Source: Escherichia phage 121Q
Sequence record: NC_025447.1
DNA length: 64,000 nt
Direction: 5' to 3' (one strand)
The notes beneath the pieces are model-generated. The model did no database searches. It was not told where the DNA came from and saw only the letters and a list, made by a program, of their open reading frames with translations. The translations under genes and the position numbers were made by a program. Of this stretch, positions 31,862 to 52,789 are shown piece after piece. Positions within the stretch are counted from its first letter, which is position 1; each line of letters begins with the position of its first letter.

Positions 31862-31966
31862 TTCATTTGAAGCAATATTGTGGAGTTCTTAATAAATACT
31901 TTTATAAGAATAATAATACTTTTTATTAAATTAAAAAGAACTCCATGTGTTATTTCAGTTTTTCGT

Positions 31967-37148: not shown

Positions 37149-37285
37149 TATTTGTGCAAATAAAAAGCAATGTGACTTTTCCTTGATATAGGTCAAGAGA
37201 AATAACCTGTTCTGACGCTATAATGTTGTCTGGTGATATTAAATATCTTCACCCCCAGATGATTTCAAAATACAAGGAATGTACA

Positions 37286-39091
37286 ATGCAATTAGATAAA
37301 TTATATACCGATGTAACAAATTTCCTAAATCAGAGTAATACTGATCTTACTAATGAAAACGCTAATAAAGATGCAAAATGCGTCAATACACATAGAGATT
37401 TACTAGCAGGTATTCTATCTAAGCATTATTCACAAGATGTTATTCCCACCGAGTTAATGCAATGGCATAATGATGGATATGGTCATATTCATGATTTAGA
37501 TTACTATATTAGCCCATTGACCAATTGTTGCTTGGTTAACTATCCTGATATGCTTAAAAACGGCTTCACTATTGGTTGTGCTAAAATTGAAGAACCAAAA
37601 AGTTTCAGTGTAGCTTGCACAGTACTGACACAAATTGTCCAAGCTGTTGCCAGTTCCCAGTATGGTGGTCAATCTTTGGCTCACATTGATGTCGGATTAG
37701 AACCTTACGTTCAAAAGTCATGGGATAAGCTGTTAGAAAAACAAAAGAAATATAATCTAAGTGATGAATTCATTGAAGAAGAACTACGTAAAGAAGTGTA
37801 TGATGGCTGCCAAACATTACTTTACCAAACTAATTCAATGATTAGTACTAATGGTCAAGCTGCATTTATTTCTCTTAGTTTAGGTCTTAACACTTCTAAA
37901 TTTGGCAAATTAATCACTGAACAGTACTTAAAAGTCCATGAGAATGGTTTAGGTAAAGATAAGATTACTCCAGTGTTTCCTAAAGTAATTTTCTTTTTAC
38001 AAGATGGTATAAACATGAATACCAACGATAGTAATTATGACCTTAAACAGTTAGCTATGCGTTGTGCATCAAAACGAATCTACCCTGACTTTGTTTCAGT
38101 ACCATTAAATCACAAAGTGACTGGAAGTAGTAGTACTGCTGTAACACCGATGGGCTGTCGTTCATTCTTAGGAAAATGGGAAGATTCAAATGGAAATGAA
38201 CAATACAACGGTCGTTTCAATTTAGGTGTGGTTTCTATCAATTTACCTCTAATTGCTCTTGAGAGTACTTCTGACGGAGAGTTTTTTGATAAGATAGACG
38301 AGCATATGAATATTGCATATCGTGCTCAGATGAACCGCGTAGAGCGTTTAAAAGGCACTAAAGCAAAGCAAAATCCAATTTTGTTCATGGAAGGTGCATT
38401 AGCACGTTTAGGTGCAGAAGAAACCATTGACAAGCTATTTTACAATGGTTATGCTAGTATTAGTATTGGTTATGTTGGACTTGTTGAATGTTCAGAAATC
38501 CTCACTGGTTCTATCAGTAAGGAGTTTTGTATGTCAGTACTGAATTATATGAAAGTAAAATGCGATGAGTTCAAAAAAGAGAGTAATATAGCTTTTAGTC
38601 TATATGGAACTCCAGCAGAGTCACTTTGTTATAAATTTGCACGTTGTATTGAAGCAAAATATCCTTCAGTACTAAAACGTGATTACATCACAAATTCCTT
38701 CCATCAACCAGTATGGGTAGAAAGTTCTCCATTTGATAAATGGAGTTATGAAGAAGGCTTTGCTTACCTAAGTAACGGTGGAAACATCAGTTATGTTGAA
38801 TCTCCAAACTTAGCAAACAACATTCAAGCACTTGAAACATTAGTTAACTATGCTTACACGAAGATACCATATTTTGGTATTAACCAACCAGTTGACCATT
38901 GTTATGAATGTGGCTTCCAGGGTGAGTTCAGTGTAGATAAACATGGTTTCCACTGTCCGGTATGTGATAATCGTAATGAGAAGACAATCTCAGTGATTCG
39001 TCGTGTTTCTGGTTACTTGGGTAATCCTTCTTCGCGTGGATTCAATAAAGGCAAACAACAAGAGTGTTGTGAGCGTATTCAGCACAAATAA
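37286..39091 (+). CDS. nrdD: anaerobic ribonucleoside-triphosphate reductase NrdD (class III)
   Basis: N-terminus NENANKD like T4 NrdD; C-terminal glycyl-radical region RVSGYLGNP; no intron; start set at ATG with RBS AAGGA. Confidence 0.9.
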   Translation: MQLDKLYTDVTNFLNQSNTDLTNENANKDAKCVNTHRDLLAGILSKHYSQDVIPTELMQWHNDGYGHIHDLDYYISPLTNCCLVNYPDMLKNGFTIGCAKIEEPKSFSVACTVLTQIVQAVASSQYGGQSLAHIDVGLEPYVQKSWDKLLEKQKKYNLSDEFIEEELRKEVYDGCQTLLYQTNSMISTNGQAAFISLSLGLNTSKFGKLITEQYLKVHENGLGKDKITPVFPKVIFFLQDGINMNTNDSNYDLKQLAMRCASKRIYPDFVSVPLNHKVTGSSSTAVTPMGCRSFLGKWEDSNGNEQYNGRFNLGVVSINLPLIALESTSDGEFFDKIDEHMNIAYRAQMNRVERLKGTKAKQNPILFMEGALARLGAEETIDKLFYNGYASISIGYVGLVECSEILTGSISKEFCMSVLNYMKVKCDEFKKESNIAFSLYGTPAESLCYKFARCIEAKYPSVLKRDYITNSFHQPVWVESSPFDKWSYEEGFAYLSNGGNISYVESPNLANNIQALETLVNYAYTKIPYFGINQPVDHCYECGFQGEFSVDKHGFHCPVCDNRNEKTISVIRRVSGYLGNPSSRGFNKGKQQECCERIQHK

Positions 39092-39099
39092 GGTAAATT

Positions 39100-39432
39100 A
39101 TGGATTTAAAGCCAATTGTGGTTAACAAATACAAAGAACCGTATGATGTGTATATTGGACGTGGGTCTAAATGGGGAAACCCATTTACCCATATTAAAGA
39201 TAAACAAACTAAAGCCGAATTCATTGTTAGTACAAGAGAAGAATCAATTGAAAAATTCAGAGAATACATTATTGAACGTATTTCTTGTGGAGAAGTTAAG
39301 ATTGATGAATTACTTGAACTCGCAGGGAAACGCCTTGGTTGTTTCTGTAAACCCAAATCATGTCACGGCGATGTTCTTGTCGAAATAGTGAGTGCAATAT
39401 TAGATGAATTACCAGACGATAATCAAGGATGA
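39100..39432 (+). CDS. conserved phage protein of unknown function (DUF4326-like, recalled from memory)
   Basis: IGRGSKWGNPF and CxCxxxxCHGDVL motifs. Confidence 0.5.
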   Translation: MDLKPIVVNKYKEPYDVYIGRGSKWGNPFTHIKDKQTKAEFIVSTREESIEKFREYIIERISCGEVKIDELLELAGKRLGCFCKPKSCHGDVLVEIVSAILDELPDDNQG

Positions 39433-39874
39433 TTTAGTAAATGGAGAGGGCGTTCGCTGCTCTTTATTTGTTAGTGGGTGTTCGCACGGATGTGATGGTT
39501 GCTTCAATGAAGAAGCATGGGACTACCGAAGTGGACAAGAGTTCAGTACTGAAACAGTTGAGATTATACTACAGGAACTAAAAAAACCATATGTTAGTGG
39601 TTTGTCACTTCTAGGCGGCGATCCATTAATGAAAAAGAATATAGATGAAGTTTTAAATCTATGCAAAGTAGTTAAAGAAACTTATCCTAGTAAAACTATT
39701 TGGTGCTGGAGTGGGTATACTTTAGATGAGATTATGAAAAATCATGCTAAAGATATACTTCAGTACTTAGATGTATTAGTTGATGGTAAGTTTATCGAGT
39801 CCGAAAAGAATTTAAAATTACCTTTCCGTGGTTCAAATAATCAAAGAATACTATATAAAAATAAAGATTTTTAA
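39404..39874 (+). CDS. nrdG: anaerobic ribonucleotide reductase activating protein NrdG (radical SAM)
   Basis: MNY start, FVSGCSHGCDGC cysteine cluster, 156 aa like T4 NrdG. Confidence 0.9.
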   Translation: MNYQTIIKDDLVNGEGVRCSLFVSGCSHGCDGCFNEEAWDYRSGQEFSTETVEIILQELKKPYVSGLSLLGGDPLMKKNIDEVLNLCKVVKETYPSKTIWCWSGYTLDEIMKNHAKDILQYLDVLVDGKFIESEKNLKLPFRGSNNQRILYKNKDF

Positions 39875-39877
39875 CAT

Positions 39878-39901
39878 AAGCACCCGTTGGGTGCTTTTTT
39901 G
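39878..39901 (+). terminator. rho-independent terminator
   Basis: AGCACCC...GGGTGCT stem plus TTTTTT. Confidence 0.65.
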
Positions 39902-39908
39902 TTATGTA

Positions 39909-39916
39909 TATAAATA
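39909..39916 (+). promoter_or_regulatory. T4-type late promoter box TATAAATA
   Basis: exact TATAAATA ~35 nt upstream of the tail-fiber gene start. Confidence 0.45.
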
Positions 39917-39950
39917 CATTAACTAATATCTAATTTATAAGGGATATATA

Positions 39951-42647
39951 ATGTCAAAGAAAATATATGGTGGCTTGGATGTCACACATAATGTGACAGT
40001 TAATGGTAAAAGAACAATACAAGGTATCAATGATCAAGTATTTGATGCTAATGGCAATATGGAGCTAGATACTTATTCAAGAGATGAAGTACTAGATATC
40101 GTCAGTATGATGCCAATTTCCCATTATGGGTCACAAAACTATCTTCCTGCTGGTGTATCTGGTGATTTCAATGGTGCATCTGAAAACCAGTCCCAACGTA
40201 GAAATAAAATTTTATTAGAAAACGATGGTACACTCGTATTATTACGTAGTGGTACAAACGGTAGTGTTGAGGGATTATATTATTCATATTTGGCTAACGC
40301 ATTATCAGTTGATGACATGAGCCGTACAATTAACACCAGTCGTCAATACAAGCCTGGTTTTTTCGGTTCAAATCGCGTCGCAATTGGCTTATACAATACT
40401 GATCCAAATATTTTACTCGGTAGATATGTAGACACTTCTAACAGTACTAATGGATTGTTTATTTCTATTACTAATGGTACATTAGATGATAAATTACATA
40501 CTGGTTTTTTTGTAAATCAAGCAGATATTTGCCCTGAAGGTGGTATAGAATTTGCAATGATGGCTGAAGATGGTTCAATCTATGTCTTTAGTGTTCTTAA
40601 TGAAAATAACCAACTACAGTTAGTTGTTGTCCGAGTTGTATATAATATTAGCAATGGAACATATACGGCAACTCGTATTACAGGATGGACTACAAAAACA
40701 TTCTATAATACAACTTATTCTGCACAGAATAACATGGTTATTACTAATCAAGTAACTTCAACTAATATAGCAGATAAGCCTTATGTGTATGTACCACAAA
40801 ACCTACGTGGTATTGGGATTTATATGACATCCATTGATTTGTATGTTGCACAGCAACCAGGAACACAGAACTTTCGTTTTAGAATGAATGGTGATGCATG
40901 GTTTACAATGGCGACATATAATGCCCGACCACAACATAGCTACAGCTTTGCATTTAATATGAGTACTAAACAATGCACCCTAGACGCTGGGAATGACATA
41001 GGTTCATATCAAGCACCATTGGTTATAACCAATACTGGTTCTGCATTAGTGCCTACAGGTAACGTTTTAAATAATGATCCATTATATAATCATGCTAATG
41101 CAAGAAACATTTATAGTTCTTATTTTTACTTAAGTTCAGGTGAAGCTTTTTGTACTGTGTGTCCAAACTTAGCAGAACCATTACTTATGCAAAAAGCAAA
41201 GTTTCCTATACAAATTGTTTATAGTATGATTAACGTTCGTGCAGTACAATCAACTGATTTTAAAGGTGGAGTTGTTAGACCATCCTTTGGTTCAGCAGTT
41301 GGTTCATTTATTAATGGTGTGGAGTTGTTACCAGATAATAGTACTAAACAATATTCACGTGCGTCTGGTAGTGGTGGGTTTAGACCATCATATGCAGTTC
41401 ATAAAAGTACTCCTAATTTTACATTTAAATCATTATCTTTAGGAACCATACAAGGTTATGAACCTACAACTGAACGTGGTTATGTAGATGATAATGCCAA
41501 TAATAGAATTTTCATTAGTAGTATTTCAGGTTCAACTGTAACAACTAATGGCGGTATTTTTATGGTTGGTCAACGTTATTCACAATCATTTTCATATGAT
41601 AAAAACTTAAATGGTACTGGTGTTATTAGTGTTACACAATCAGTTCTAGATAACTTTAGAAATACAGAATATGCTAAAGTTCTAAGTGACTGGAACTTAT
41701 CTTCACAAGCTTATCGTGATATGACATTATTTGTTCCACAACAAACTGACATTCCGGCTTTTGTTATGTTGAGTACTATAACAAATGACTATAAAAACTA
41801 TATTAGAATTGCTGAAGTTAACGTTAATACTAGAGTTGGAAATATAACATCTATTACCTTTAAGCGTTTAGTACTAGAAAATACATATGGTGAAAACTTT
41901 ACACCTAATGGTAATGGTTCGATTGCATCTTCTTCTGTTGGGTTAACAATTTATGATGGTGGTTCATTCTACTTCATTGGTGGTTCTGACCCATTAACAC
42001 ATCCAACAATAGGAAATACAGCAACTCATCAATTTAGAGCATATGTAACTAAATCAACTGCACAATTTACAAGTTTTGTTATTACTGGTTCTCATGCCAG
42101 TTATGAACAAGGAAGACAACCCACTGCGTTGCCTGGTATTGGATTTGGTATTTTTGATCCACTGGATTATACAAATAAAATGTCATTTCAAAAATATGGA
42201 ACAACGATAGCCGACTATAATAACTGGACTCCACAAGGTAGCCCAATTAACGTAGTATCACAAGACGTTGCTCAAGGGTTTATTGTTTATTTTACAGAGG
42301 AAACACCAGTTATACTATCAGGTAAGTCTTTTACACTACCAGTTTCAAATATTGATTTGAGAACTATAAAATCTAATCCAGCAAATACAACATTTTATGT
42401 ATATGTTAAATTAGAACAAGGGTTGGCAAACTACTACATAACTACTGATGTTATTTCCGAAACAGGAACAACTGCATATAATATTTTTTGGATAGGTACT
42501 ATTCAAACTAACGCAATTCAAATCGAAACTATTAATATACAAAAACGTTCACGTTTAGATATATTTGGTGCTTCACTTGAATCAGCAGGTTCATCGTTCC
42601 CAGTTAGCTACGGTCTACCATCACAAACAGGAACCATAAACTGGTAA
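39951..42647 (+). CDS. tail fiber / receptor-binding protein, paralog 1 (898 aa)
   Basis: Asn/Ser/Thr/Gly-rich; N- and C-terminal modules shared with the next two ORFs; late promoter upstream. Confidence 0.5.
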   Translation: MSKKIYGGLDVTHNVTVNGKRTIQGINDQVFDANGNMELDTYSRDEVLDIVSMMPISHYGSQNYLPAGVSGDFNGASENQSQRRNKILLENDGTLVLLRSGTNGSVEGLYYSYLANALSVDDMSRTINTSRQYKPGFFGSNRVAIGLYNTDPNILLGRYVDTSNSTNGLFISITNGTLDDKLHTGFFVNQADICPEGGIEFAMMAEDGSIYVFSVLNENNQLQLVVVRVVYNISNGTYTATRITGWTTKTFYNTTYSAQNNMVITNQVTSTNIADKPYVYVPQNLRGIGIYMTSIDLYVAQQPGTQNFRFRMNGDAWFTMATYNARPQHSYSFAFNMSTKQCTLDAGNDIGSYQAPLVITNTGSALVPTGNVLNNDPLYNHANARNIYSSYFYLSSGEAFCTVCPNLAEPLLMQKAKFPIQIVYSMINVRAVQSTDFKGGVVRPSFGSAVGSFINGVELLPDNSTKQYSRASGSGGFRPSYAVHKSTPNFTFKSLSLGTIQGYEPTTERGYVDDNANNRIFISSISGSTVTTNGGIFMVGQRYSQSFSYDKNLNGTGVISVTQSVLDNFRNTEYAKVLSDWNLSSQAYRDMTLFVPQQTDIPAFVMLSTITNDYKNYIRIAEVNVNTRVGNITSITFKRLVLENTYGENFTPNGNGSIASSSVGLTIYDGGSFYFIGGSDPLTHPTIGNTATHQFRAYVTKSTAQFTSFVITGSHASYEQGRQPTALPGIGFGIFDPLDYTNKMSFQKYGTTIADYNNWTPQGSPINVVSQDVAQGFIVYFTEETPVILSGKSFTLPVSNIDLRTIKSNPANTTFYVYVKLEQGLANYYITTDVISETGTTAYNIFWIGTIQTNAIQIETINIQKRSRLDIFGASLESAGSSFPVSYGLPSQTGTINW

Positions 42648-42658
42648 AGGATTACATA

Positions 42659-43246
42659 ATGGCATTTAAAATAAGAGCAGACCTTAAGGCAATGCAACAA
42701 GTTACAGTACAGGGTAAAAGTACTGGACTTGGTGTATTAGGTAATAATATGACTTATTACCCAACAAATTCAAATGGGGAATGTACATTCCCCTCTATTA
42801 CCAAAGATGAAGTTAACTTTATTGTCAATGGATTACCACTTACACAATACGGAGAATTGTATGATGACGCTAGTCTAAATATTACTTCATCAGGCTATAG
42901 TCTTACATTTAATAGACAGATACCATCATTTATTGGTGGTTATCTTTATAAATTTCCAGCAGTTTCTATTTTTGCTTCAACTGTTTCATCTGGAACACAA
43001 ACACAATATGTATATGCAACGTTAGTTCTCGGTGAACCAATTTATAAAATATCACCAACACAAATACAAGAATCTGAAATTATAATGTTTATTGGAACAC
43101 TGACCGTTGGTACAAGTGGTATTACAAATATAAACATTAATAAAGTATCCAGATTTAGTACATATAGACCTAGTGTTACACAAAAAGGTTCTTCATTCCC
43201 AGTCAGTACTGGAAAACCATCAGAAACTGGTACAATTGGTTGGTAA
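42659..43246 (+). CDS. short tail-fiber-like protein, paralog 2 (195 aa)
   Basis: shares N-terminal and C-terminal (SSFPVSTGKPSETGT) modules with flanking long fibers. Confidence 0.45.
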   Translation: MAFKIRADLKAMQQVTVQGKSTGLGVLGNNMTYYPTNSNGECTFPSITKDEVNFIVNGLPLTQYGELYDDASLNITSSGYSLTFNRQIPSFIGGYLYKFPAVSIFASTVSSGTQTQYVYATLVLGEPIYKISPTQIQESEIIMFIGTLTVGTSGITNININKVSRFSTYRPSVTQKGSSFPVSTGKPSETGTIGW

Positions 43247-43262
43247 ATTAAGGAAAAGAAAG

Positions 43263-45992
43263 ATGTCATCAAAACGAATTATAGGAAGTGCCGAGATCCT
43301 TGGGAACTTGGCAATTGGACAAAGGTACGCTATGCGTACTTTTAATGGAACCTCACCGAATGCCAATACTGGAATTGTTCAATATCCAATATATAAGCGT
43401 TCAGAAGTTCAAAGTATTTTAGATATGTTGCCTATATCACGTGTAGGAGAAATGGATTACTTGCCATTAAACGTAAGTGGGTCGTATGAAGGTGCTACAC
43501 CTATGTCAAGTGACCAAGTAGTTCAGCCAACAATTATTGAAGATGATGGAACCGCCGTTGTTCTGCGTAGCGGAACCAATGGTAGTACTAAAGGTTTTTA
43601 TTATTCATTTATACGAGAAATCAGAAATATAACCATGATTTCACAAGAAAGTGTTATTTCAACCAATTCAATGTATAAACCTTCAATTATGAGTAGTACA
43701 GAGAATATTAAGTATTTTATTGGCTCTAATGGTTATGAAATGCTTGGATGTTTAAGTACAGAAGATAATTATATTTTTACTATAACTAATGGTACATTCA
43801 ACGAAGTATCACATATTCATGCTAAAGTACCAAGTACTTCTTTTGGTAATGATATGCCTATATATACTCATATTGTTGGAACAAAAGTATATATTTGGTG
43901 TAAAGATAAAAGTGTTTCTAATTTAGGATTAGCACTTTCAATTTATACAGTAGAGCTAAGTGATGTGAAAGCAAGCTCAATGGCATCATTAACAAAAGTT
44001 ACTGGATTATCAGGGCAAACTGTTCGAAATACAAGTTATTCTGCATCTAATAACATAAGAGTGTTTGATAGATTATATAGTGTTGGTACTAGCTCGGATT
44101 CATTATTCGAAGTTACATCACCAGTCTCACGTGTAGAATTTTCGGATTATACAGACTTTAATATACAAGCAAACGTTAGTACTGATTTATCCAAAATACG
44201 TGTAACTTTATACCCAACCCATAGAATGGTTACACCTTTATATATTTCAACAGTGTATGGTACTGGTATCAGTTTTGTTTATAATATAAACTCAAAATCT
44301 ATGTCACTAGATGGTTCTGCTCGTGCTCCTGCTACAGTTTCATATGATAATGGATTTCAAGTTTCTAACCCATTTGAAATCAATATGGTCAACTTTACTG
44401 GGACAACTGCTGCTGGTGTATTAGGAAACGCAGGTGGTTTATGTCAAACCAAAGATGGTTTAGTATTTGCATCTAAATTTAGATGGAGTTCAACTGAATT
44501 TTATGGTCTACAACGATATAAGGTTAGTGGTACACCGTTTGATTCATGGGTTGCTAGTACTAGATCCGCAAGTAACGTTATAAATGCAAACGTTTTACCA
44601 GTTTTTGGTAGTGCTGTTGGTGCAAACCTATTAGGTGTACGTTTCATCGATAATAGAAAAATATTATTAGCATGTTCTGGTACGTATGATGATGTAACAT
44701 ATAATTATAATAATACTGTTTTTTCTGAAATAGGCTCACAACCAACATATCAATATAACTCAGTTCAAAATAATACTACATTAAATGGTTTTGCACCACA
44801 ATCTAATCGTAAACAAATAGGTGATGATTTTACATACACTGCTATGATTTCTCTTGTTGATACCGATGGTAGTGTTAGATGTTATGGAACATCATTCATT
44901 GAAGGTGTATATAAAACAAGTGGTGGATTATTAAACCCAGATACTTTAGAATTTGATGAAACATATACAATAGAACCAACGGTATTAGAATCATTAAAAC
45001 AAGATATTTTTGCTAATCTAGGAAACTCTGGCATTGTTGGTACACTATCTGGACAAATTGTATTATATTATGTACCTGATAATACTTTTTCTAAATCCAT
45101 TGCAGTAGTTTCAGCATATAATCTTAACAATAACCAAGGTTATGCAATCTATGCCGAAGTTGATGTTGTATTATCTGGAACTAACATAACTTCAGCTACA
45201 TTGGTAAGTACTAGATATGAGACACTTAGTTCTGTTACCGGAATTATTACTGAAGCATATATGAAACGTTGTACTGGTCTAACAGTTGCTAAATATTCAG
45301 GATTTGGTTACATTGGTGTTGATGCAGTTCATCAATTTTCACAACCAGGTAATGCACAATTTAAGATGATGATAGCTAAAACAGTAGATGGTGTCATAAC
45401 ATCAAATCGTTTTTTATCATCTAGTTACATCCAACTCGGTGCAGCATATCAACATGGTGTTATTCCTGGTGTTGGTTTTGGATATTACAATTTTCAAGAT
45501 TCTGACTATCAAACCAAATCTGTATTCAGCGTTTTTGGTACAACATCTGCTGAAATGGATGGTTTAATTAGCGGAAATGGTAGCGTTAAAGAAAAGATTG
45601 TGGTAGTATCACAAGACGTTGCACAAGGATTCTCAGTGTACTTTACACGTGAAGTCCCGGTGTTTTTAGGTGGAATTTTCGACAGACTACCTATACAAAG
45701 TGTAGATTTAAGTACTGTAAAAAGTAATCCAGCTAATACTACGTTCTATTTGTATATACAAATGAACAGGAATACTAAGAAAGCTTCATATGTTATTAGT
45801 ACTGAAACAATTGATGAATCTTTAACTAGCACTTACATTGGTAAGATAGTTACTGGAACTTCAGGAATAACTTCAATTGATACAGAAAAAGTAACTCGTT
45901 TTTTGACATATCGTCCAAGTACAACGAAACGTGGTTCAGCGATACCTGCCAGTACTGGTGTACCATCAGGTCCAGGTACACGTTGGAAATAA
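43263..45992 (+). CDS. tail fiber / receptor-binding protein, paralog 3
   Basis: start refined to ATG after previous stop with RBS AAGGAAAAG; N-terminus aligns with 39951 ORF. Confidence 0.5.
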   Translation: MSSKRIIGSAEILGNLAIGQRYAMRTFNGTSPNANTGIVQYPIYKRSEVQSILDMLPISRVGEMDYLPLNVSGSYEGATPMSSDQVVQPTIIEDDGTAVVLRSGTNGSTKGFYYSFIREIRNITMISQESVISTNSMYKPSIMSSTENIKYFIGSNGYEMLGCLSTEDNYIFTITNGTFNEVSHIHAKVPSTSFGNDMPIYTHIVGTKVYIWCKDKSVSNLGLALSIYTVELSDVKASSMASLTKVTGLSGQTVRNTSYSASNNIRVFDRLYSVGTSSDSLFEVTSPVSRVEFSDYTDFNIQANVSTDLSKIRVTLYPTHRMVTPLYISTVYGTGISFVYNINSKSMSLDGSARAPATVSYDNGFQVSNPFEINMVNFTGTTAAGVLGNAGGLCQTKDGLVFASKFRWSSTEFYGLQRYKVSGTPFDSWVASTRSASNVINANVLPVFGSAVGANLLGVRFIDNRKILLACSGTYDDVTYNYNNTVFSEIGSQPTYQYNSVQNNTTLNGFAPQSNRKQIGDDFTYTAMISLVDTDGSVRCYGTSFIEGVYKTSGGLLNPDTLEFDETYTIEPTVLESLKQDIFANLGNSGIVGTLSGQIVLYYVPDNTFSKSIAVVSAYNLNNNQGYAIYAEVDVVLSGTNITSATLVSTRYETLSSVTGIITEAYMKRCTGLTVAKYSGFGYIGVDAVHQFSQPGNAQFKMMIAKTVDGVITSNRFLSSSYIQLGAAYQHGVIPGVGFGYYNFQDSDYQTKSVFSVFGTTSAEMDGLISGNGSVKEKIVVVSQDVAQGFSVYFTREVPVFLGGIFDRLPIQSVDLSTVKSNPANTTFYLYIQMNRNTKKASYVISTETIDESLTSTYIGKIVTGTSGITSIDTEKVTRFLTYRPSTTKRGSAIPASTGVPSGPGTRWK

Positions 45993-45998
45993 ATTTAA

Positions 45999-46025
45999 AG
46001 CTCGTCTATTGACGGGCTTTTCTTT
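45999..46025 (+). terminator. rho-independent terminator
   Basis: GCTCGTC...GACGGGC stem plus T-run. Confidence 0.5.
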
Positions 46026-46059
46026 TATGTGTATAATTGAATAAAAATAGGAGGAAATT

Positions 46060-46626
46060 ATGGTCAAATCTTTATTACCGCCACCAAAACGTCACAAAAT
46101 CAAAGAAATGAAAGAACAACGTACATTAAAGATGTACATCAATTTAGTTAAGTTACTGTGTAAAAGTCCATCGCTCAAAGCAGAGTTTAAAACTGATGAT
46201 GACCGCAAAGCACTAATTGAGATGAAGTATATGCTCAGTAAAATGTCCTTTTACAAATTTGTAAAAGAATACGCATCTGACCCATTTAGTCCTCGTTGGA
46301 GAGCCAAACCAAGAGAGTATTTTTACGGTGGTTCATATACGGATCTCATTCAAGACACAGTGATGGGAGTTGAATTTGAAATCGATTATGAGCCGAATGG
46401 TGTGGAAAGCTGGCCGATTGAGAAACGTTTACCAAGTGAAGAAGAAATTTATGTTTATGCAAGAAAACTTTCAAATTTCAGTTCAAGAATTACTCTAGGC
46501 AATTTAGATTCATTTATTATTTTCTATACACGTGTTGGTGTAGATAAAATGGTAACTAAACTCAATGAACTTTCATTACAACAAAAACAGATTAATGCAT
46601 ACAAAGACATTACTGATTTATACTAA
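46060..46626 (+). CDS. hypothetical protein, triplicated family member 1
   Basis: RBS GGAGG; shares central motif with next two ORFs. Confidence 0.5.
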   Translation: MVKSLLPPPKRHKIKEMKEQRTLKMYINLVKLLCKSPSLKAEFKTDDDRKALIEMKYMLSKMSFYKFVKEYASDPFSPRWRAKPREYFYGGSYTDLIQDTVMGVEFEIDYEPNGVESWPIEKRLPSEEEIYVYARKLSNFSSRITLGNLDSFIIFYTRVGVDKMVTKLNELSLQQKQINAYKDITDLY

Positions 46627-46638
46627 TGAGGAATGGAT

Positions 46639-47154
46639 ATGTTTTTTGGATCAGTTGGAAAACAAAACAGTACTTTAATTTGGCATGAAATTATCTTTAA
46701 AATTATATCTAAAAGCTACTCACTAAAGGATATTATTACCACAGATAATGATAGACGTATCCTGTTAGATGCAAAATATAAATTGAGCAAACACCCTTTA
46801 CTTTCTTTAATCATTGATTACGTTAATGATTATGAATCTAGTCGTTGGAAGTGGGAAGACGGCGGTTTATTTCGTGGAAAAACATTCTACGGTGCGGAAC
46901 GATATGTTTTCAGTGATACATCAAATGGCGTTAAGTTTGTTATTAGAAACTTTAACTCCAAAGAAAATGATTATCTTGAAAGTGGAGTGAAAGTATATAT
47001 CGATAATAATAGCAATGTACTAACATATGACGAATCACTAATTATGTTACAAATAATGCGTGGAGTTGAAGGTGTAAGAAACAACCTTACTAAATTGAAA
47101 ATCCAGCAAAATGATATACATAATAGACAGAAAATTAAGGGTTTATATAAATGA
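46639..47154 (+). CDS. hypothetical protein, triplicated family member 2
   Basis: ORF in track. Confidence 0.45.
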   Translation: MFFGSVGKQNSTLIWHEIIFKIISKSYSLKDIITTDNDRRILLDAKYKLSKHPLLSLIIDYVNDYESSRWKWEDGGLFRGKTFYGAERYVFSDTSNGVKFVIRNFNSKENDYLESGVKVYIDNNSNVLTYDESLIMLQIMRGVEGVRNNLTKLKIQQNDIHNRQKIKGLYK

Positions 47155-47660
47155 TTTCATTTTTCAAAAAGAAACAAAAAGTTGATGAAACCGGATTAGA
47201 ATCGTTTCTGTGGACTCTTATCATCAAAAAAAGCCCATTGATGAAAGAATATGCTATCAATGATGCTAATAGAAAAACTATCATTGAATACAAATATGAA
47301 TTATCTAAATGTGATCCAATTGTTTATCACTTTGCGAAGTACTGTTCAAAAAATTTATCGGATATCACAATCGACCACGAGTCAGTCCCGATGAGTTTTC
47401 CTTATGGTGATTGGGTAGATACTTTTGATATTTTTGATGGGTCAAATGGTTTCAGTTTCTTTTACTCGTCAAATAAAGCAAATGTTCGTATTAAAACAGA
47501 CATAGGTTGGACACAGCATAGCTCAAATAAAGAAGATTATAATTTATTAGCTGACGTATACCGAAGTGTGAAGAATTCAAAGGATATTGATGAAAGAATT
47601 AAAAAGCAAAATCGTATATCTTTATCACTTGAAACATACAAGTCAAAGTATGGTGGTTAA
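47151..47660 (+). CDS. hypothetical protein, triplicated family member 3
   Basis: ORF in track. Confidence 0.45.
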   Translation: MISFFKKKQKVDETGLESFLWTLIIKKSPLMKEYAINDANRKTIIEYKYELSKCDPIVYHFAKYCSKNLSDITIDHESVPMSFPYGDWVDTFDIFDGSNGFSFFYSSNKANVRIKTDIGWTQHSSNKEDYNLLADVYRSVKNSKDIDERIKKQNRISLSLETYKSKYGG

Positions 47661-47662
47661 CT

Positions 47663-48064
47663 ATGACTACAGTTGATGATATCTATAGCACTATACGCAA
47701 TATGAGTACAGATAGAAAAGTATTTGGCGATAAAGAAAAATCTAAGTGTTATGGTATTGATTCTTTTGATATAATTTCTTATGAGTACAATACAAGTGGA
47801 AATAGTTCACTGAATATCGTCTGTCCTCGTGACCCAGAAAATAATTTTATGTATGTTGAAATTAATAATGATGGAATGTTTTTTACAAAAGTTTTCAAAG
47901 GTGGAATTAATTACGAACCTATTGAATGTATGAATGAAGAAACTTTCTTTCAAGAAGATACAATTATCAATTTAGGTTTTAGTTTTGATGATTATAAAAC
48001 ATTAGAACATGACTTTAATCGTTATTATAATGGTTTCTTAAAGGAGTTAACAATTTATCTATGA
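47663..48064 (+). CDS. hypothetical protein
   Basis: ORF in track. Confidence 0.45.
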   Translation: MTTVDDIYSTIRNMSTDRKVFGDKEKSKCYGIDSFDIISYEYNTSGNSSLNIVCPRDPENNFMYVEINNDGMFFTKVFKGGINYEPIECMNEETFFQEDTIINLGFSFDDYKTLEHDFNRYYNGFLKELTIYL

Positions 48065-49293
48065 ATAACCAATATATTGAACAAACAATAGTGAAACACT
48101 TGGCTGGGTCACAAGCCTACGGAACCAGTACACCTGAAAGTGATACTGATTATCGTGGTATTTTTCTTGCTAATAAAGAATTTATTCTTACACCCTTCTA
48201 TAAGGTCAAAGAGGTAGCTGATAAAAGCGAAGAAGATACTAAATTCTATGAGTTGAATCAGTATTTAAAATTATACACTGAAGCTAACCCTAATATTCTT
48301 GAATCACTTTGGGTTGAACCTGAACACATTGTTGAAAGTACTGAAATTTATGACTATCTTCGTTCATTTAACCAAAAACTTCTTAGTTCCAAGATTGCAT
48401 TTTCATATACTGGTTATGCATATAATCAGATTAAGCGTATGACAAATCATCACGGTTGGATGGATAAAGAGCGTATTGCTGAAAAACGATTAAATGAGAT
48501 TTTAGAAGAACACCCTGTCGATGAGGTTCTTGCGTGGATGTATGATTCATTCCCACAGTATCTTGTTGAACGTTTAGATACATCCAACTTACATCCATTT
48601 AATGCTAAAAAGATTGATTTTGAAAAATATATGCGTGATACATCATTGCAGTTAGTTTCGAAAAATCCATTAAAGCAATATCATTTCGTAAGATTAGTGC
48701 ATAACTACACTACTGAAAAAATTCTTGATCGTGATTTCAATTTATTGAATTTTAATAATGGTTATGAACTAATTCATTACGGAGAAAACATTTTTGCGAT
48801 TGTTAAGAATCCTAATGAAAGCACTATTAACCATGATGGTTCATTGCGTTATTTTTCAAAAGAACGTAGTACTGAAGAGTTGAAAAACAAACCAGAACTA
48901 ATTGTCAAATTTAACGAAAAAGAATATCAGGAAAATAGTGAGAATAGGAAAAGTTATCATAAATGGAAAGAAAATCGTAATGCCAAACGTGCTATTTTAG
49001 AATCACAACACGGATACGATTGTAAACATGCTATGCACACAATCCGACTTTTGAATAGTGCAGAAGAAGCATTACAAAGTGGAATTATTCAAGTTAAACG
49101 ACCAGATGCACAAATGTTGATGGATATTCGTAATGGTAAATGGAAGTATGAAGAAGTATTAGAATATTTCGATGATAAAGTACAATACATTCGTGATGTT
49201 CTATATAAGAAATCAGTACTTCCTAAAAAACCAAACATCAAGTTAGCATCAAAAATTATCATTGATATTAGAGAAATGCAATGGTATAAGTAA
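48061..49293 (+). CDS. Pol-beta-superfamily nucleotidyltransferase
   Basis: N-terminal GSQAYGTSTPESDTDYRGIF matches the hG[GS]...D.D signature. Confidence 0.5.
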   Translation: MNNQYIEQTIVKHLAGSQAYGTSTPESDTDYRGIFLANKEFILTPFYKVKEVADKSEEDTKFYELNQYLKLYTEANPNILESLWVEPEHIVESTEIYDYLRSFNQKLLSSKIAFSYTGYAYNQIKRMTNHHGWMDKERIAEKRLNEILEEHPVDEVLAWMYDSFPQYLVERLDTSNLHPFNAKKIDFEKYMRDTSLQLVSKNPLKQYHFVRLVHNYTTEKILDRDFNLLNFNNGYELIHYGENIFAIVKNPNESTINHDGSLRYFSKERSTEELKNKPELIVKFNEKEYQENSENRKSYHKWKENRNAKRAILESQHGYDCKHAMHTIRLLNSAEEALQSGIIQVKRPDAQMLMDIRNGKWKYEEVLEYFDDKVQYIRDVLYKKSVLPKKPNIKLASKIIIDIREMQWYK

Positions 49294-49307
49294 CATATAC
49301 AAGTGTA

Positions 49308-49499
49308 ATGGTACTAAAAATGCCATTACACTCAATAAATACTCAATATAAATTAACACAAGGATTAAGTATGGCACAACAAATTTTCACAGATATCCAC
49401 ACTACCGGAGTTATTAAATTTCAAAATAATTTTTCTGGTGCTACTGGTGTAGACATTAAAAATGATGGTTTTAACATTGTCAGTACTCGGATCTATTGA
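49308..49499 (+). CDS. small ORF overlapping the next gene; possibly 5-prime part of a frameshifted gene
   Basis: ORF in track; overlaps 49462 ORF by ~38 nt. Confidence 0.3.
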   Translation: MVLKMPLHSINTQYKLTQGLSMAQQIFTDIHTTGVIKFQNNFSGATGVDIKNDGFNIVSTRIY

Positions 49500-49998
49500 T
49501 GGTGAAGATAGTTCTCTTAGTGATTCTGTGATTGCATCATTCGGAACTAATAAAAACAGTTCTTTTATTATATCTGGATGGACTGGAATGACTGATTCTG
49601 AAAATAATGTTAAGATAAAAGCTAAAGCTACTAACGAGAATCATGAAACAGAATGGGTAACATTATATGATAGTGCAAGTAATAAGTTATATAATGTATT
49701 AAGTTCTAATAATATTTTAATTAATCCACTGTCGGGCAATTCTGTTTTTAATATTAATTTATCTGATAGAAATACTACTATTTCGATTGGTGCGGCTCCT
49801 ACTGAAGTTTATTCAATTACCATCCTATTAACACAACAAACAGGTTCAAACCTAGTTAATTGGGGTTCTAATGTTAAATGGTCATATAACAGACCAGTTG
49901 TTCTTTCTTATGAAATTGGTGAAAAAGATATTATTTCATTAGAAACATATGATAAAGGAGTTACATGGTACGGTGCATTAATTAGAGCAGGAGTATGA
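49462..49998 (+). CDS. hypothetical protein, possibly structural
   Basis: ORF in track; Asn/Ser-rich. Confidence 0.4.
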   Translation: MMVLTLSVLGSIDGEDSSLSDSVIASFGTNKNSSFIISGWTGMTDSENNVKIKAKATNENHETEWVTLYDSASNKLYNVLSSNNILINPLSGNSVFNINLSDRNTTISIGAAPTEVYSITILLTQQTGSNLVNWGSNVKWSYNRPVVLSYEIGEKDIISLETYDKGVTWYGALIRAGV

Positions 49999-49999
49999 T

Positions 50000-52789
50000 A
50001 TGTTAAACAATAATATTGATAATATTGTACAACTTCTTTATGGGCATCACAAATTTATTGAAAGAAATACTGGTGATACAATAGACCCAACAGTACAACA
50101 TTATGTGGTGAACAATCAGGGTGTTTTGGCGAACAACCGTCATTTTATTAACTATTCTGCAATGGAAGGTCAACCAAACGGTGACGGAACAACAGAAGGT
50201 CAAAGTCTATTAATTTTAGGATACATTTATGCGTATCTGGCAACAAATGATCCAATGTTTTTAGATAAGGCAAAGTGGTATTGGGACGCATATCATCAGT
50301 ACTTTTATGCTGGACGTGAATTACCAGATCCACCTACACCACTACAATGTAACTGGATAGTTAATGCCAAAGAACCTATATTGGCTAACTGGCCTTTAGC
50401 TGATGATGGCTGGCCCACACATGGTGGTTTCAAGGGAGTAGAATTTACATTTACTAATGGTCAATGTAAAATACCACATGGTGCACCATATTATGGTCAG
50501 TTCTTGGATAAAGTGACATTTGCATTCAAAGGTGCGTTAGCATGGAACCAAATAAATGCTTCAGTAAAAGCATTATTACCAGATGGTAGTGTTGATTGGG
50601 ATACACCAGGTGAACAATATGATGTTGACTGGATTATCGATTTCATGGGTAGAAAAATCGACTGGGATGGTAATATTTTAGCAGAAGGTTTTGACGAATC
50701 TGAAAAAGGAACTGTTCAATTAAAGAATACAACAATTAATGGTGTATATAAATTAAATTTTGCAAATCGTCAACCAGTAGAATATGGTGGTGTGATAATT
50801 CAACGAAATGAAATGCAACACAACCGCCCTCTTCATGTTCCAATTGATTTGGAATTTGCTGATAACGCATCAGATGCAGAATTATGGTTTAGTGATGCTT
50901 CTTATTTGTTATATAAAATAACAAAAGAAAGAAAACATTATTTGGGTTGGAAATGTTCACTACTAACGTGTTATGCTTATGGTGATATTGACTCCAGAGA
51001 TAAATTTTTCAGACAAAGTACAATTGTAACCACACCATTCACTGATGGTATTTCCTATGAATATTTTTATCCTAGTGATGCTATTGCTAAGTTTGGTAGA
51101 AATTCTCTAGGATATATTACTATCAGGCAAGACCAAAGTGCACAAAGTACTATGGAACAACAAGCTATTTGGTTCAGGGTCAATGCTGATTCTAAATTAC
51201 TTGTAGACTATGGTGGTGTATGTGATGATGGTAAGCCGTTATCATTTAAACCAGTACTGGAATTGTCAAAAACAAAAAATGACCATGATGTTGTTCGTTA
51301 TCGTTGTGGCTTACCGGAAAGTAAAGACCAAAATATCACACATTCATTAACACCTTTAAGTGCATTTGTTAGAGAAAAGAAAGCAGATGGTTTCCCTTAT
51401 ATAATTGCTGATAGTAGAATTGTTGTTCCTTATGGTGCAGCTACGTCCGAAATGATATATAGTACTGATATATTAGTTACACGCCGCGATACCATTAATC
51501 AGTTAGTTTGTGGTGAAGATGATGGTGCTGTTATTGGATTTTGGCTATTAGCAACAAATAAGTCTGAAGTTAAATCTTTTACCTATCGTTCATATGAAGA
51601 TGATTACAATATAAGAATTGTAGATGATAATGGTTGGAGATGGTGGTGGATGATTCCTGCAACACACGGGGAATGGACTACAATCACACTAAGTTCCGAT
51701 ACATTACGTTTATCTGGGTATCAGCCAAATCATCCAAGTTCTGACCCAAGACCAGATGCACCAGTTTATAGTGAACTAGAAGATATTACTATTTTACCTG
51801 ATACAACCCCAGTAGATGGTGTTGCTGCAATAATTGATTGGTATTGTATTAATGACATTCCAGAATTATACACGGATGCTGACGGTGATGACTATACTAT
51901 GACATTTTCAATAACAATTGCAGGTGAATCACCATATACTGCACAGTTAGGGGATTGTGTAATCAAGGATTATTTGTTAAACTCATTGCATTACACACCA
52001 GGAACAATACCATTTTCTAACATCACTGACCCGTATGCGAACCAGTATTCAGGATGGCGTGGTTTACCGTATCCAGGTTATCAATATCCTGTGATATATT
52101 GTTTTAAAGACCAGCCAGTAGATAACACACGCTTAGGAAACATGTTAAGCTTTATGAAAGATTCCCAAACATGGTTTACTCAACAATTCGGTACTGTTGG
52201 TCCGTGTGCACAAGCATATGTTTGGAACCGCTGGGATAACTTAAAATATGGTGAACCAGATACATTTACTATGCTACATTGGGGTGATCAAGCATGGAGT
52301 GGGTATGAACCACGTGCGTTCTTTGGGGCTGCCAGAGCATGGCAAGAACTCGCAGAGAGAGGAATTGAACCACCAGCAGATCTTGTTGAATTTTGTGAGA
52401 ATTGGATTCACTTTTTAATTCAATTTCAAAAAGATAATGATGGTCGTTCACCAACAATCTTCAATAAAGATGGCACAGTTGAAGGTCCAGATTGGGACTT
52501 TACAGGTCATATGTGTGGGTTGTGGTTAGCTGGGGCTTGTGCTGCTGGATTGGCTGGATGTAAAATAGAAGGTCTAACAACACTCGCTGATAACTTAGTT
52601 CTCGAACTTCAAAAGAATTATGTTATTGTAAATCCAGGTTCACCAATGAATGGTTCATGGAGTCCAGCAGTTAGAGAAGGTACTGATAATGGTATGTTTT
52701 TTGGTTTCTGGGCAGGTGAGATTATGCGTGGATTGGGATTATACTCAATGTACCGCTTAAACACACCAAATCGTTTCCGTGATTTATAA
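50000..52789 (+). CDS. large protein (929 aa), possibly virion-associated or carbohydrate-active; function unknown
   Basis: long Trp/Tyr/Gly-rich ORF directly after fiber-like genes. Confidence 0.4.
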   Translation: MLNNNIDNIVQLLYGHHKFIERNTGDTIDPTVQHYVVNNQGVLANNRHFINYSAMEGQPNGDGTTEGQSLLILGYIYAYLATNDPMFLDKAKWYWDAYHQYFYAGRELPDPPTPLQCNWIVNAKEPILANWPLADDGWPTHGGFKGVEFTFTNGQCKIPHGAPYYGQFLDKVTFAFKGALAWNQINASVKALLPDGSVDWDTPGEQYDVDWIIDFMGRKIDWDGNILAEGFDESEKGTVQLKNTTINGVYKLNFANRQPVEYGGVIIQRNEMQHNRPLHVPIDLEFADNASDAELWFSDASYLLYKITKERKHYLGWKCSLLTCYAYGDIDSRDKFFRQSTIVTTPFTDGISYEYFYPSDAIAKFGRNSLGYITIRQDQSAQSTMEQQAIWFRVNADSKLLVDYGGVCDDGKPLSFKPVLELSKTKNDHDVVRYRCGLPESKDQNITHSLTPLSAFVREKKADGFPYIIADSRIVVPYGAATSEMIYSTDILVTRRDTINQLVCGEDDGAVIGFWLLATNKSEVKSFTYRSYEDDYNIRIVDDNGWRWWWMIPATHGEWTTITLSSDTLRLSGYQPNHPSSDPRPDAPVYSELEDITILPDTTPVDGVAAIIDWYCINDIPELYTDADGDDYTMTFSITIAGESPYTAQLGDCVIKDYLLNSLHYTPGTIPFSNITDPYANQYSGWRGLPYPGYQYPVIYCFKDQPVDNTRLGNMLSFMKDSQTWFTQQFGTVGPCAQAYVWNRWDNLKYGEPDTFTMLHWGDQAWSGYEPRAFFGAARAWQELAERGIEPPADLVEFCENWIHFLIQFQKDNDGRSPTIFNKDGTVEGPDWDFTGHMCGLWLAGACAAGLAGCKIEGLTTLADNLVLELQKNYVIVNPGSPMNGSWSPAVREGTDNGMFFGFWAGEIMRGLGLYSMYRLNTPNRFRDL

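Follow-up and report, generated by a model that had tools for sequence, protein, structure and literature searches.

The DNA analysed here, called the window, is a stretch of 64,000 nucleotides (nt) of Escherichia phage 121Q (NC_025447.1), read 5' to 3' on one strand. The subject of this report is a row of three genes at positions 39951-45992, here named A, B and C. Because these 6 kb are nearly identical to the corresponding DNA of phages SHEFM2K (100%), G17 and Sharanji (both 99.8%), the window is assigned to an Asteriusvirus genome, which puts it among the RaK2-like jumbo myoviruses, with a genome size of about 350 kb; PBECO4 and phAPEC6 are about 94% identical, and all of these identities cover positions 39951-45992 only. 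The genes and the layout of their products, including the predicted domains, are as follows.

39951..42647, plus strand: gene A, 898 amino acids (aa), long paralog at position 1; N-module aa 1-75, predicted beta-propeller core about aa 76-773, C-module (predicted beta-sandwich) aa 774-870, C-tail aa 871-898
42659..43246, plus strand: gene B, 195 aa, short paralog at position 2, with its own ribosome-binding site (RBS); N-module from aa 1 to about 70, including LPLTQYG, C-module aa 77-162, C-tail aa 163-195, without the propeller core
43263..45992, plus strand: gene C, 909 aa from ATG 43263, long paralog at position 3, with the architecture of A

The genes are separated by 11 nt (A-B) and 16 nt (B-C). 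An earlier inspection of the letters (the sequence-only reading) had listed open reading frames (ORFs) of 898, 195 and about 910 aa at this place, and they are as described once the start of C is corrected. The mechanical ORF list gives C as 939 aa from GTG 43173, overlapping B. The true start is almost certainly ATG 43263, because this codon is preceded by an RBS (AAGGAAAAG) and because the alignments of C to A and to CBB_149, a gene of phage CBB, begin at residue 2-3.

Paralogy and origin of the short form

On pairwise alignments and family profiles A, B and C are paralogs, and B consists of about the N-terminal 70 and the C-terminal 120 residues of the long form, that is, of the two ends joined, as had been noticed from the ORFs. 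In pairwise comparisons the C-module is common to all three: B 77-195 matches A 774-898 (36% identity, E value 1e-16) and C 787-906 (43%, E 7e-24), and A and C are 47% identical in this module over 135 aa. In the N-module A and C agree well (39%, E 4e-21), whereas the match is modest between B and A (33%, E 6e-7) and marginal between B and C (E 0.001-0.02). The proposed homology of the termini is thus firm for the C-module of all three and for the N-module of A and C, and less so for the N-module of B. Similarly, the C-terminal motif S-[FI]-P-[VA]-S-x-G-x-P-S-x-[TP]-G-T attributed to all three proteins is exact in A and B, whereas C reads G-S-A-I-P-A-S-T-G-V-P-S-G-P-G-T, with the leading S one residue further off. 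In the form G-[SG]-x-[FI]-P-x-S-x-G-x-P-x3-G-x3-W the conserved tail reaches phage Ea35-70 and, more loosely, Pseudomonas phage EL.

The long central regions had been taken to differ; they are diverged yet homologous end to end. The full proteins A and C align in one high-scoring segment pair (27% identity, E 2e-61), the cores alone give E 3e-8 and 42.7 bits against a maximum of 22.7 bits in 50 shuffles, and the profile of phrog_3573 covers both proteins over their full length (A 1-898, 1.1e-274; C 25-908, 1.3e-266). The divergence is uneven, with about 20-22% identity in the cores and 34-46% in the ends. B has a full-length match to another profile, phrog_26864 (residues 1-195, 4.4e-115). PHROGs places the long and the short forms in separate families, which hides their kinship, and the families phrog_3573, phrog_26864 and phrog_7449 carry no functional label. 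Searches of Pfam and NCBIfam gave no match for A, B or C, PDB sequence searches with the three proteins and with the profiles A1 and A2 gave nothing meaningful, and no internal duplication between the two halves of the A core was detectable by blastp.

Each position of the trio has counterparts in RaK2-like phages: A, CBB_147 and SNU50_139 at position 1, B, CBB_148 and SNU50_140 at position 2, and C, CBB_149 and XaC1_225 at position 3. A is 46% identical to CBB_147 and SNU50_139, and C is 35.5% identical to CBB_149. Proteins of about 900 aa are encoded at all three positions in CBB, GAP32 and Eneladusvirus. The modules of B match the middle genes CBB_148 and SNU50_140 (913-916 aa) best. Since the hidden Markov model (HMM) of the B family matches the full-length position-2 proteins at residues 1-93 (2e-16 to 1e-19) and 793-913 (4e-44), B is, by these matches, the position-2 ortholog minus residues of about 94-793, derived by internal deletion. 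In Xanthomonas phage XaC1 the genes at two positions are short, with 190 aa at position 1 and 194 aa at position 2, and their N- and C-modules are each of their own positional type. Because the position-1 short form of XaC1 keeps position-1-type modules, at least two losses of the core, with the same borders between domains, are counted on the same kind of comparison. The opening of the C-module, 'SQDVAQGF', is kept in the RaK2-like long forms and degenerate in all three short forms, which is what packing against the propellers would predict.

An exhaustive profile search found 425 clusters that carry the module. Among the 149 tabulated of the best 150 of these, about 60 are 150-260 aa long and about 66 are 880-1020 aa long, the rest including longer proteins; short forms make up about 40% of these best-scoring clusters. 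In some short forms '...LPVSSFGSKDYLPPNVSG' runs directly into 'GWIVYFTDETP...', a junction that amounts to a clean excision of the body, and in another lineage a long form is followed by an adjoining short form of 235 aa with both ends in common. A metagenomic protein of 2488 aa (P0197) holds two tandem units, composed of P-x-S-x-YG, propellers and a C-module without the tail, together with further domains, so that the unit behaves like a module open to reuse.

B had been likened to a cassette missing its receptor-binding core. Its conservation marks it instead as a functional gene in its own right. Even at 45% identity the B orthologs are still 195-202 aa long, and 40 alignment columns, spread across both modules, are invariant. 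The local gene order is kept as well in a metagenomic contig that is 45% identical: nrdG comes first, then genes of 904 aa and 202 aa, then the next gene, as here. Compared with phAPEC6, B is 99.5% identical, its 4 differences being too few for an informative ratio of nonsynonymous to synonymous divergence (dN/dS).

A modular exchange of receptor-binding domains had also been suggested, and the orthologs speak against it. About 40 orthologs of A, at 45-96% identity, are colinear and almost gap-free, and no cassette swapping was seen among them. In the orthologs at the far end of this range the core is 36-58% identical and the N-module, C-module and tail 57-85%; the core diverges faster and is never replaced. 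Relative to phAPEC6, dN/dS is 0.04 for A and 0.04 for C, indicating strong purifying selection. Synonymous divergence from the same phage over positions 37223-52789 is mosaic, with values of 0.51 for A, 0.27 for nrdD, 0.10 for C, 0.045 for nrdG, 0.02 for B and 0.005 for a 929-aa tail protein. Gene A appears to have a recent history other than that of its neighbours, and these swings from gene to gene therefore point to an ordinary recombination patchwork of whole genes and not to domain swapping.

Predicted folds, virion evidence and genomic context

The AlphaFold2 model of A, built on an alignment of 43 sequences, is all-beta, compact and multi-propeller (predicted local distance difference test 87.3; predicted template modelling score 0.81). 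About 52 strands lie in residues 86-770, and the first 70 or so and the last 28 residues are uncertain. The core of A is accordingly modelled as beta-propellers of the lectin/glycosidase type. The model of B is confident for residues 70-160 only, which form a beta-sandwich. The conserved C-terminal tail is disordered in the monomer models of A and B and would probably gain order on docking to a partner. The word 'fibre', by which the three proteins had been called, does not suit a model that is compact and not elongated, and no fibre family of Pfam or NCBIfam, as for the classical tail fibres of the T4 gp34-37 and P2 gpH type, matches the trio.

Published mass spectrometry (MS) of virions, which had been named as a check, places the A ortholog in the particle of phAPEC6, detects the B and C orthologs weakly in phage fENko-Kae01 and detects none of the three in CBB. 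The phAPEC6 protein, gp323c (98.6 kDa), is documented by 4 unique peptides that cover 5.6% of it. In phAPEC6 (MK817115, 14709-18042) the orthologs of B and C are intact but lack annotated coding sequences (CDS), just a 114-nt ORF being annotated inside C, and because they are unannotated the phAPEC6 proteome could not detect them. fENko-Kae01 carries the trio as proteins of 897, 195 and 921 aa, and 3 spectral counts for the B ortholog and 2 for the C ortholog (CDS_170) were reported. The 'structural protein' labels of CBB were considered as further MS evidence and rejected, CBB_147-149 being absent from the MS table of that paper; the labels presumably derive from homology. Low counts for a protein of 100 kDa fit a low-copy tail part rather than a capsid decoration.

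The C-module and the A-like body are also found in nucleus-forming jumbo phages, adjoining baseplate genes. Ea35-70 gp019 and EL ORF114/115 begin with about 250 residues homologous to the N-domain of the baseplate-fibre proteins gp131/133/134/135 of phage phiKZ (E 2e-20 to 1e-7), and from the P-x-S-x-YG motif on the same proteins are A-like, including the C-module. Through these fusions, therefore, the A-like body stands in some phages where phiKZ uses the gp131 propeller. Ea35-70, a chimallivirus, has a gp131-type cluster of four genes, gp017-020 (loci L014 3285-5523 and L007 1010-8002). In this cluster gp017 is the gp131-type N-domain alone, and gp018 (420 aa) is the short form, composed of the gp131-type N-domain, 'PMVQFG' and the C-module. 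The two remaining genes, gp019 and gp020, are long forms with the A-like body, gp020 having about 150 extra residues past the conserved ...W.

The transcription signals that border the three genes are listed below.

39878..39896, plus strand: terminator-like hairpin with T-run, 8 pairs of which 5 are GC; closes the nrdD/nrdG unit and marks the upstream edge of A-B-C
39909..39917, plus strand: T4-late-type promoter-like motif TATAAATAC, about 35 nt 5' of the A start codon
45997..46020, plus strand: strong terminator-like hairpin with T-run, directly 3' of C; marks the downstream edge of the unit
46009-46037, plus strand: near-consensus sigma70-type promoter, overlapping and following the terminator and facing the next genes

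TATAAATA is rarer than expected in the window (3 sites on both strands against 12.6 expected), and the motif 5' of A is its sole copy on the plus strand. ATAAATAC occurs three times on the plus strand, at 31892, 39910 and 49335, and a visual comparison with the ORF list places all of them, apparently, between ORFs. Downstream of the copy at 49335 come a 42-aa ORF (ATG 49371), an ORF of 178 aa and the tail protein of 929 aa (gp314c). By position and size the 42-aa ORF is apparently the ortholog of phAPEC6 gp315c, and both gp315c and gp314c are virion proteins of phAPEC6 according to virion MS. The arrangement of hairpin and ATAAATAC is conserved at the head of the trio in CBB (5' of CBB_147), in Eneladusvirus (5' of SNU50_139) and in Yersinia phage Yen9-03 (5' of Yen_140). 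According to the CBB paper, ATAAATA is the putative promoter from which structural genes are transcribed late; the paper also mentions a gp55-like sigma factor. Because of the consensus matches and the conservation of these signals across phages, we read A-B-C as one late-type operon.

Upstream of the trio lie nrdD and nrdG; downstream are small genes of no assigned function, a nucleotidyltransferase and the 929-aa tail protein (phrog_2871). Directly after the terminator and the sigma70-type promoter, positions 46060-47660 hold three small tandem paralogs (188, 173 and 169 aa), with 29.5% identity between the first and the second (E 6e-15). The families concerned, phrog_18641 and phrog_7868, are without a functional label. 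Between nrdD and nrdG lies a 110-aa ORF (39100-39432), overlapped by an antisense ORF of 104 aa (39042-39356) that is probably spurious. In the CBB locus a protein annotated with a DUF4326 domain, CBB_154, sits further downstream.

Proposed assembly and alternatives

To the reading that A, B and C are low-copy late virion proteins of one host-recognition assembly at the periphery of the baseplate we give about an even chance. Its parts differ in strength. A role in the virion tail or in host recognition is likely, given the presence of gp323c in the virion, the shoulder-like C-module (compared with known shoulder domains below), the propeller core and the gp131 anchor of the relatives, and to this extent the receptor-binding role first suggested for the trio remains plausible. 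That the proteins form true hetero-oligomers, a step taken by analogy, is a tentative part of the reading to which we give somewhat less than an even chance.

According to this composite reading A, B and C would be made late and then become part of the tail, probably at the edge of the baseplate, attaching through the common N-module, the hub and the C-terminal tail. The short N-terminal segment of the long subunits, which ends in P-[IL]-[ST]-x-[YF]-G, would be the attachment part, binding to structures on the host surface would fall to the propellers of A and C, the C-terminal beta-sandwich would serve as the hub, and the conserved C-terminal peptide would dock onto a partner. In B the deletion took away the propeller body of about 700 residues, precisely between the domain borders, and spared the assembly parts. 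B would thus be a hub-only subunit, either co-assembling with A and/or C or filling an equivalent site, and would keep the complex whole with fewer propeller heads. A repeated, border-precise loss of the body with both ends kept is hard to understand if the paralogs act alone and easy if the ends build a common structure. As to the ligand, fENko-Kae01 needs flagella for adsorption, and SHEFM2K is said, at second hand, to use flagellar structures; neither report connects A, B or C themselves with this receptor.

Several observations weigh against this reading. The trio adjoins nrdD/nrdG, outside the main structural block. The structures of the family are predictions and its location is inferred. 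In the receptor-binding proteins (RBPs) and in TssK the shoulder is N-terminal, with the head C-terminal to it, whereas the C-module stands at the C-terminus (aa 774-870/898), after the propellers. The spectral counts of fENko-Kae01 are under the cut-off of its authors and come from a preparation that was merely ultrafiltered, and MS of CBB did not detect CBB_147-149. Comparison of A, B and C with gp131-135 by blastp and with the A1 HMM gave no match to the gp131-type N-domain (about 250 aa); because none is detectable, the link to baseplate fibres rests on analogy and on the domain fusions in distant phages. Finally, the number of paralogs is not always three: the C-module was detected in two genes of EL, and a metagenomic locus (L013) has one long and one short form. 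In Ea35-70 it is found in three genes (gp018-020). A 'rule of three' was considered and given up; it holds in the RaK2-like phages sampled, and the counts detected in EL and in the truncated locus L013 do not fit it.

Three independent homo-oligomeric receptor-binding proteins at separate sites, with several specificities and with B as a head-less stub or cap that fills or blocks sites, would account for some of the data. This is the option of multiple fibres for host-range breadth that the sequence-only reading had raised; it is still a live rival, and we regard it as rather unlikely. Divergent cores and conserved ends in A and C are what binding to different ligands would lead one to expect, 1:1 orthologs exist for each position in several genera, and phAPEC6 bears fibres at several ring positions. 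Domains of the shoulder type, whose fold the C-module has, are usually homotrimers, as in the p2 RBP and TssK. It is hard to see, however, what a head-less homotrimer would be good for, and short forms have nevertheless arisen more than once and been conserved; the tight operon linkage and the conserved order favour co-assembly, and the nearest structurally studied analogue, phiKZ gp131/133/134/135, has been modelled as a hetero-oligomer of paralogs with common ends. It is less probable still that B is a released assembly factor or chaperone, which would mimic the hub and help A and C to fold or oligomerise. B is small and lies between two large genes of the same late operon, the MS evidence for it in particles is weak, and phage fibre chaperones are often encoded beside fibre genes. 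Nevertheless, in Pfam, PHROGs and NCBIfam B matches paralog families only and no chaperone family of the Tfa, gp38 or gp57A type; it keeps the two parts by which a subunit should be held in the virion, the N-module and the C-terminal tail that probably serves for docking, and peptides of its ortholog occur in a >300 kDa fraction of fENko-Kae01. CBB and Eneladusvirus moreover have a full-length paralog at the B position, and the short form gp018 of Ea35-70 bears the label of a virion structural protein, which comes without a stated basis.

The hair-like fibres of phAPEC6 and CBB have no gene assigned, gp323c is in the phAPEC6 virion without an assigned place, and phAPEC6 has three ring positions, as there are three paralogs; the trio might then serve in these capsid or tail 'hairs'. 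This we hold to be very unlikely: the model of A consists of globular propellers and not of a filament of about 119 nm, the MS coverage is very low for a protein at every capsid hexamer, the relatives bear the baseplate-fibre anchor of phiKZ gp131, and GAP32, which according to the CBB authors should lack the whisker genes, has the trio. The origin of B by internal deletion would also suit a decaying, functionless remnant of a deleted paralog. That view is effectively refuted by a frame and a length (190-202 aa) kept in many lineages, down to 45% identity and with the 40 invariant columns, by the separate RBS of B and its near-identity in phAPEC6, and by the share of short forms, about 40%, among the best clusters (149 of 425).

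The composite reading invites a wider conjecture, which we consider doubtful: hub-only short paralogs could be obligatory subunits of mixed complexes and a general means by which jumbo phages set the number of propeller heads per complex. If so, there would be three heads per complex in CBB, GAP32 and Eneladusvirus, two in Asteriusvirus and one in XaC1; avidity or steric bulk would be traded against specificity with the docking geometry fixed, and the C-terminal peptide G-S-x-[FI]-P-x-S-x-G-x-P...W would be a universal docking element of a previously undescribed module.

How RaK2-like jumbo coliphages recognise their hosts is poorly understood, and at least two trio-bearing relatives are reported to depend on flagella, one of them at second hand. 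The present analysis defines a widespread, unannotated module of four parts (N-anchor, propeller body, shoulder-like hub and docking tail), unites in a single family the long and short forms that databases split into separate families without function, and ties the module to the phiKZ gp131 family, the one jumbo-phage fibre system with structural data. It offers concrete targets for host-range engineering and for the reading of future baseplate maps, and it exposes a practical gap, two of the three genes being missing from the phAPEC6 annotation behind the only Asteriusvirus virion proteome. The databases already hold these proteins as hypothetical proteins and as PHROG families of no assigned function, and clusters of paralogous jumbo-phage baseplate receptor-binding proteins are already known. 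The recurrent, putatively hub-only paralog and the fusions of Ea35-70 and EL add to these; no published description of the module, of the relation between long and short forms or of the gp131 link was found in the literature.

Comparison with known systems

The core of A resembles the AAL fucose lectin, GH130 and GH43 proteins, sialidases and the propeller platform of the RBP of Staphylococcus aureus phage phi11, at 5-10% identity and as a generic fold likeness only. The C-module has a beta-sandwich like the 'shoulder' of lactococcal p2 ORF18, of the phage 1358 RBP, of SPP1 gp22 and of TssK of the type VI secretion system (4-14% identity); unlike in these RBP and TssK systems, the sandwich is followed here by a conserved tail of 30 residues.

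Within phiKZ, gp26, gp27 and gp28 were tried as relatives and rejected, blastp and HMM searches showing no homology. gp27 is also 898 aa long, and the C-terminus of gp26 inserts into partners; because there is no homology, the match in length is a coincidence. The phiKZ gp131 structure is absent among the top 50-60 structural matches listed for A, and no sequence similarity to it was found either. On sequence comparison A, B and C are outside the gp131 family. The propeller region of A and C is about twice as long as that of phiKZ gp131, and the proteins gp131-135 are without the C-module and tail (no match of the A1 HMM). A-B-C are alike at both ends, phiKZ gp131-gp135 at the N-terminus only. 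A very short member of the phiKZ cluster, gp132 (110 aa; locus L010 10810-11142), is a mini-paralog whose match to gp131 is confined to residues 214-289 of the latter.

The likeness between the two systems lies in their organisation. Both consist of tandem jumbo-myovirus paralogs with common terminal assembly modules and a differing remainder, and both combine a propeller body on the longest member with very short members (phiKZ: Sycheva 2012; PMC13250141). In the phiKZ atlas of 2026 (PMC13250141) the N-termini of three gp131 copies and of gp133, gp134 and gp135 were fitted to each fibre base, with twelve bases on the outer baseplate, and the propeller of gp131 is distal and likely to be the host-binding part. 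By analogy, the co-assembly through a common module that is proposed here for paralogs of unequal length has a structural precedent in phiKZ.

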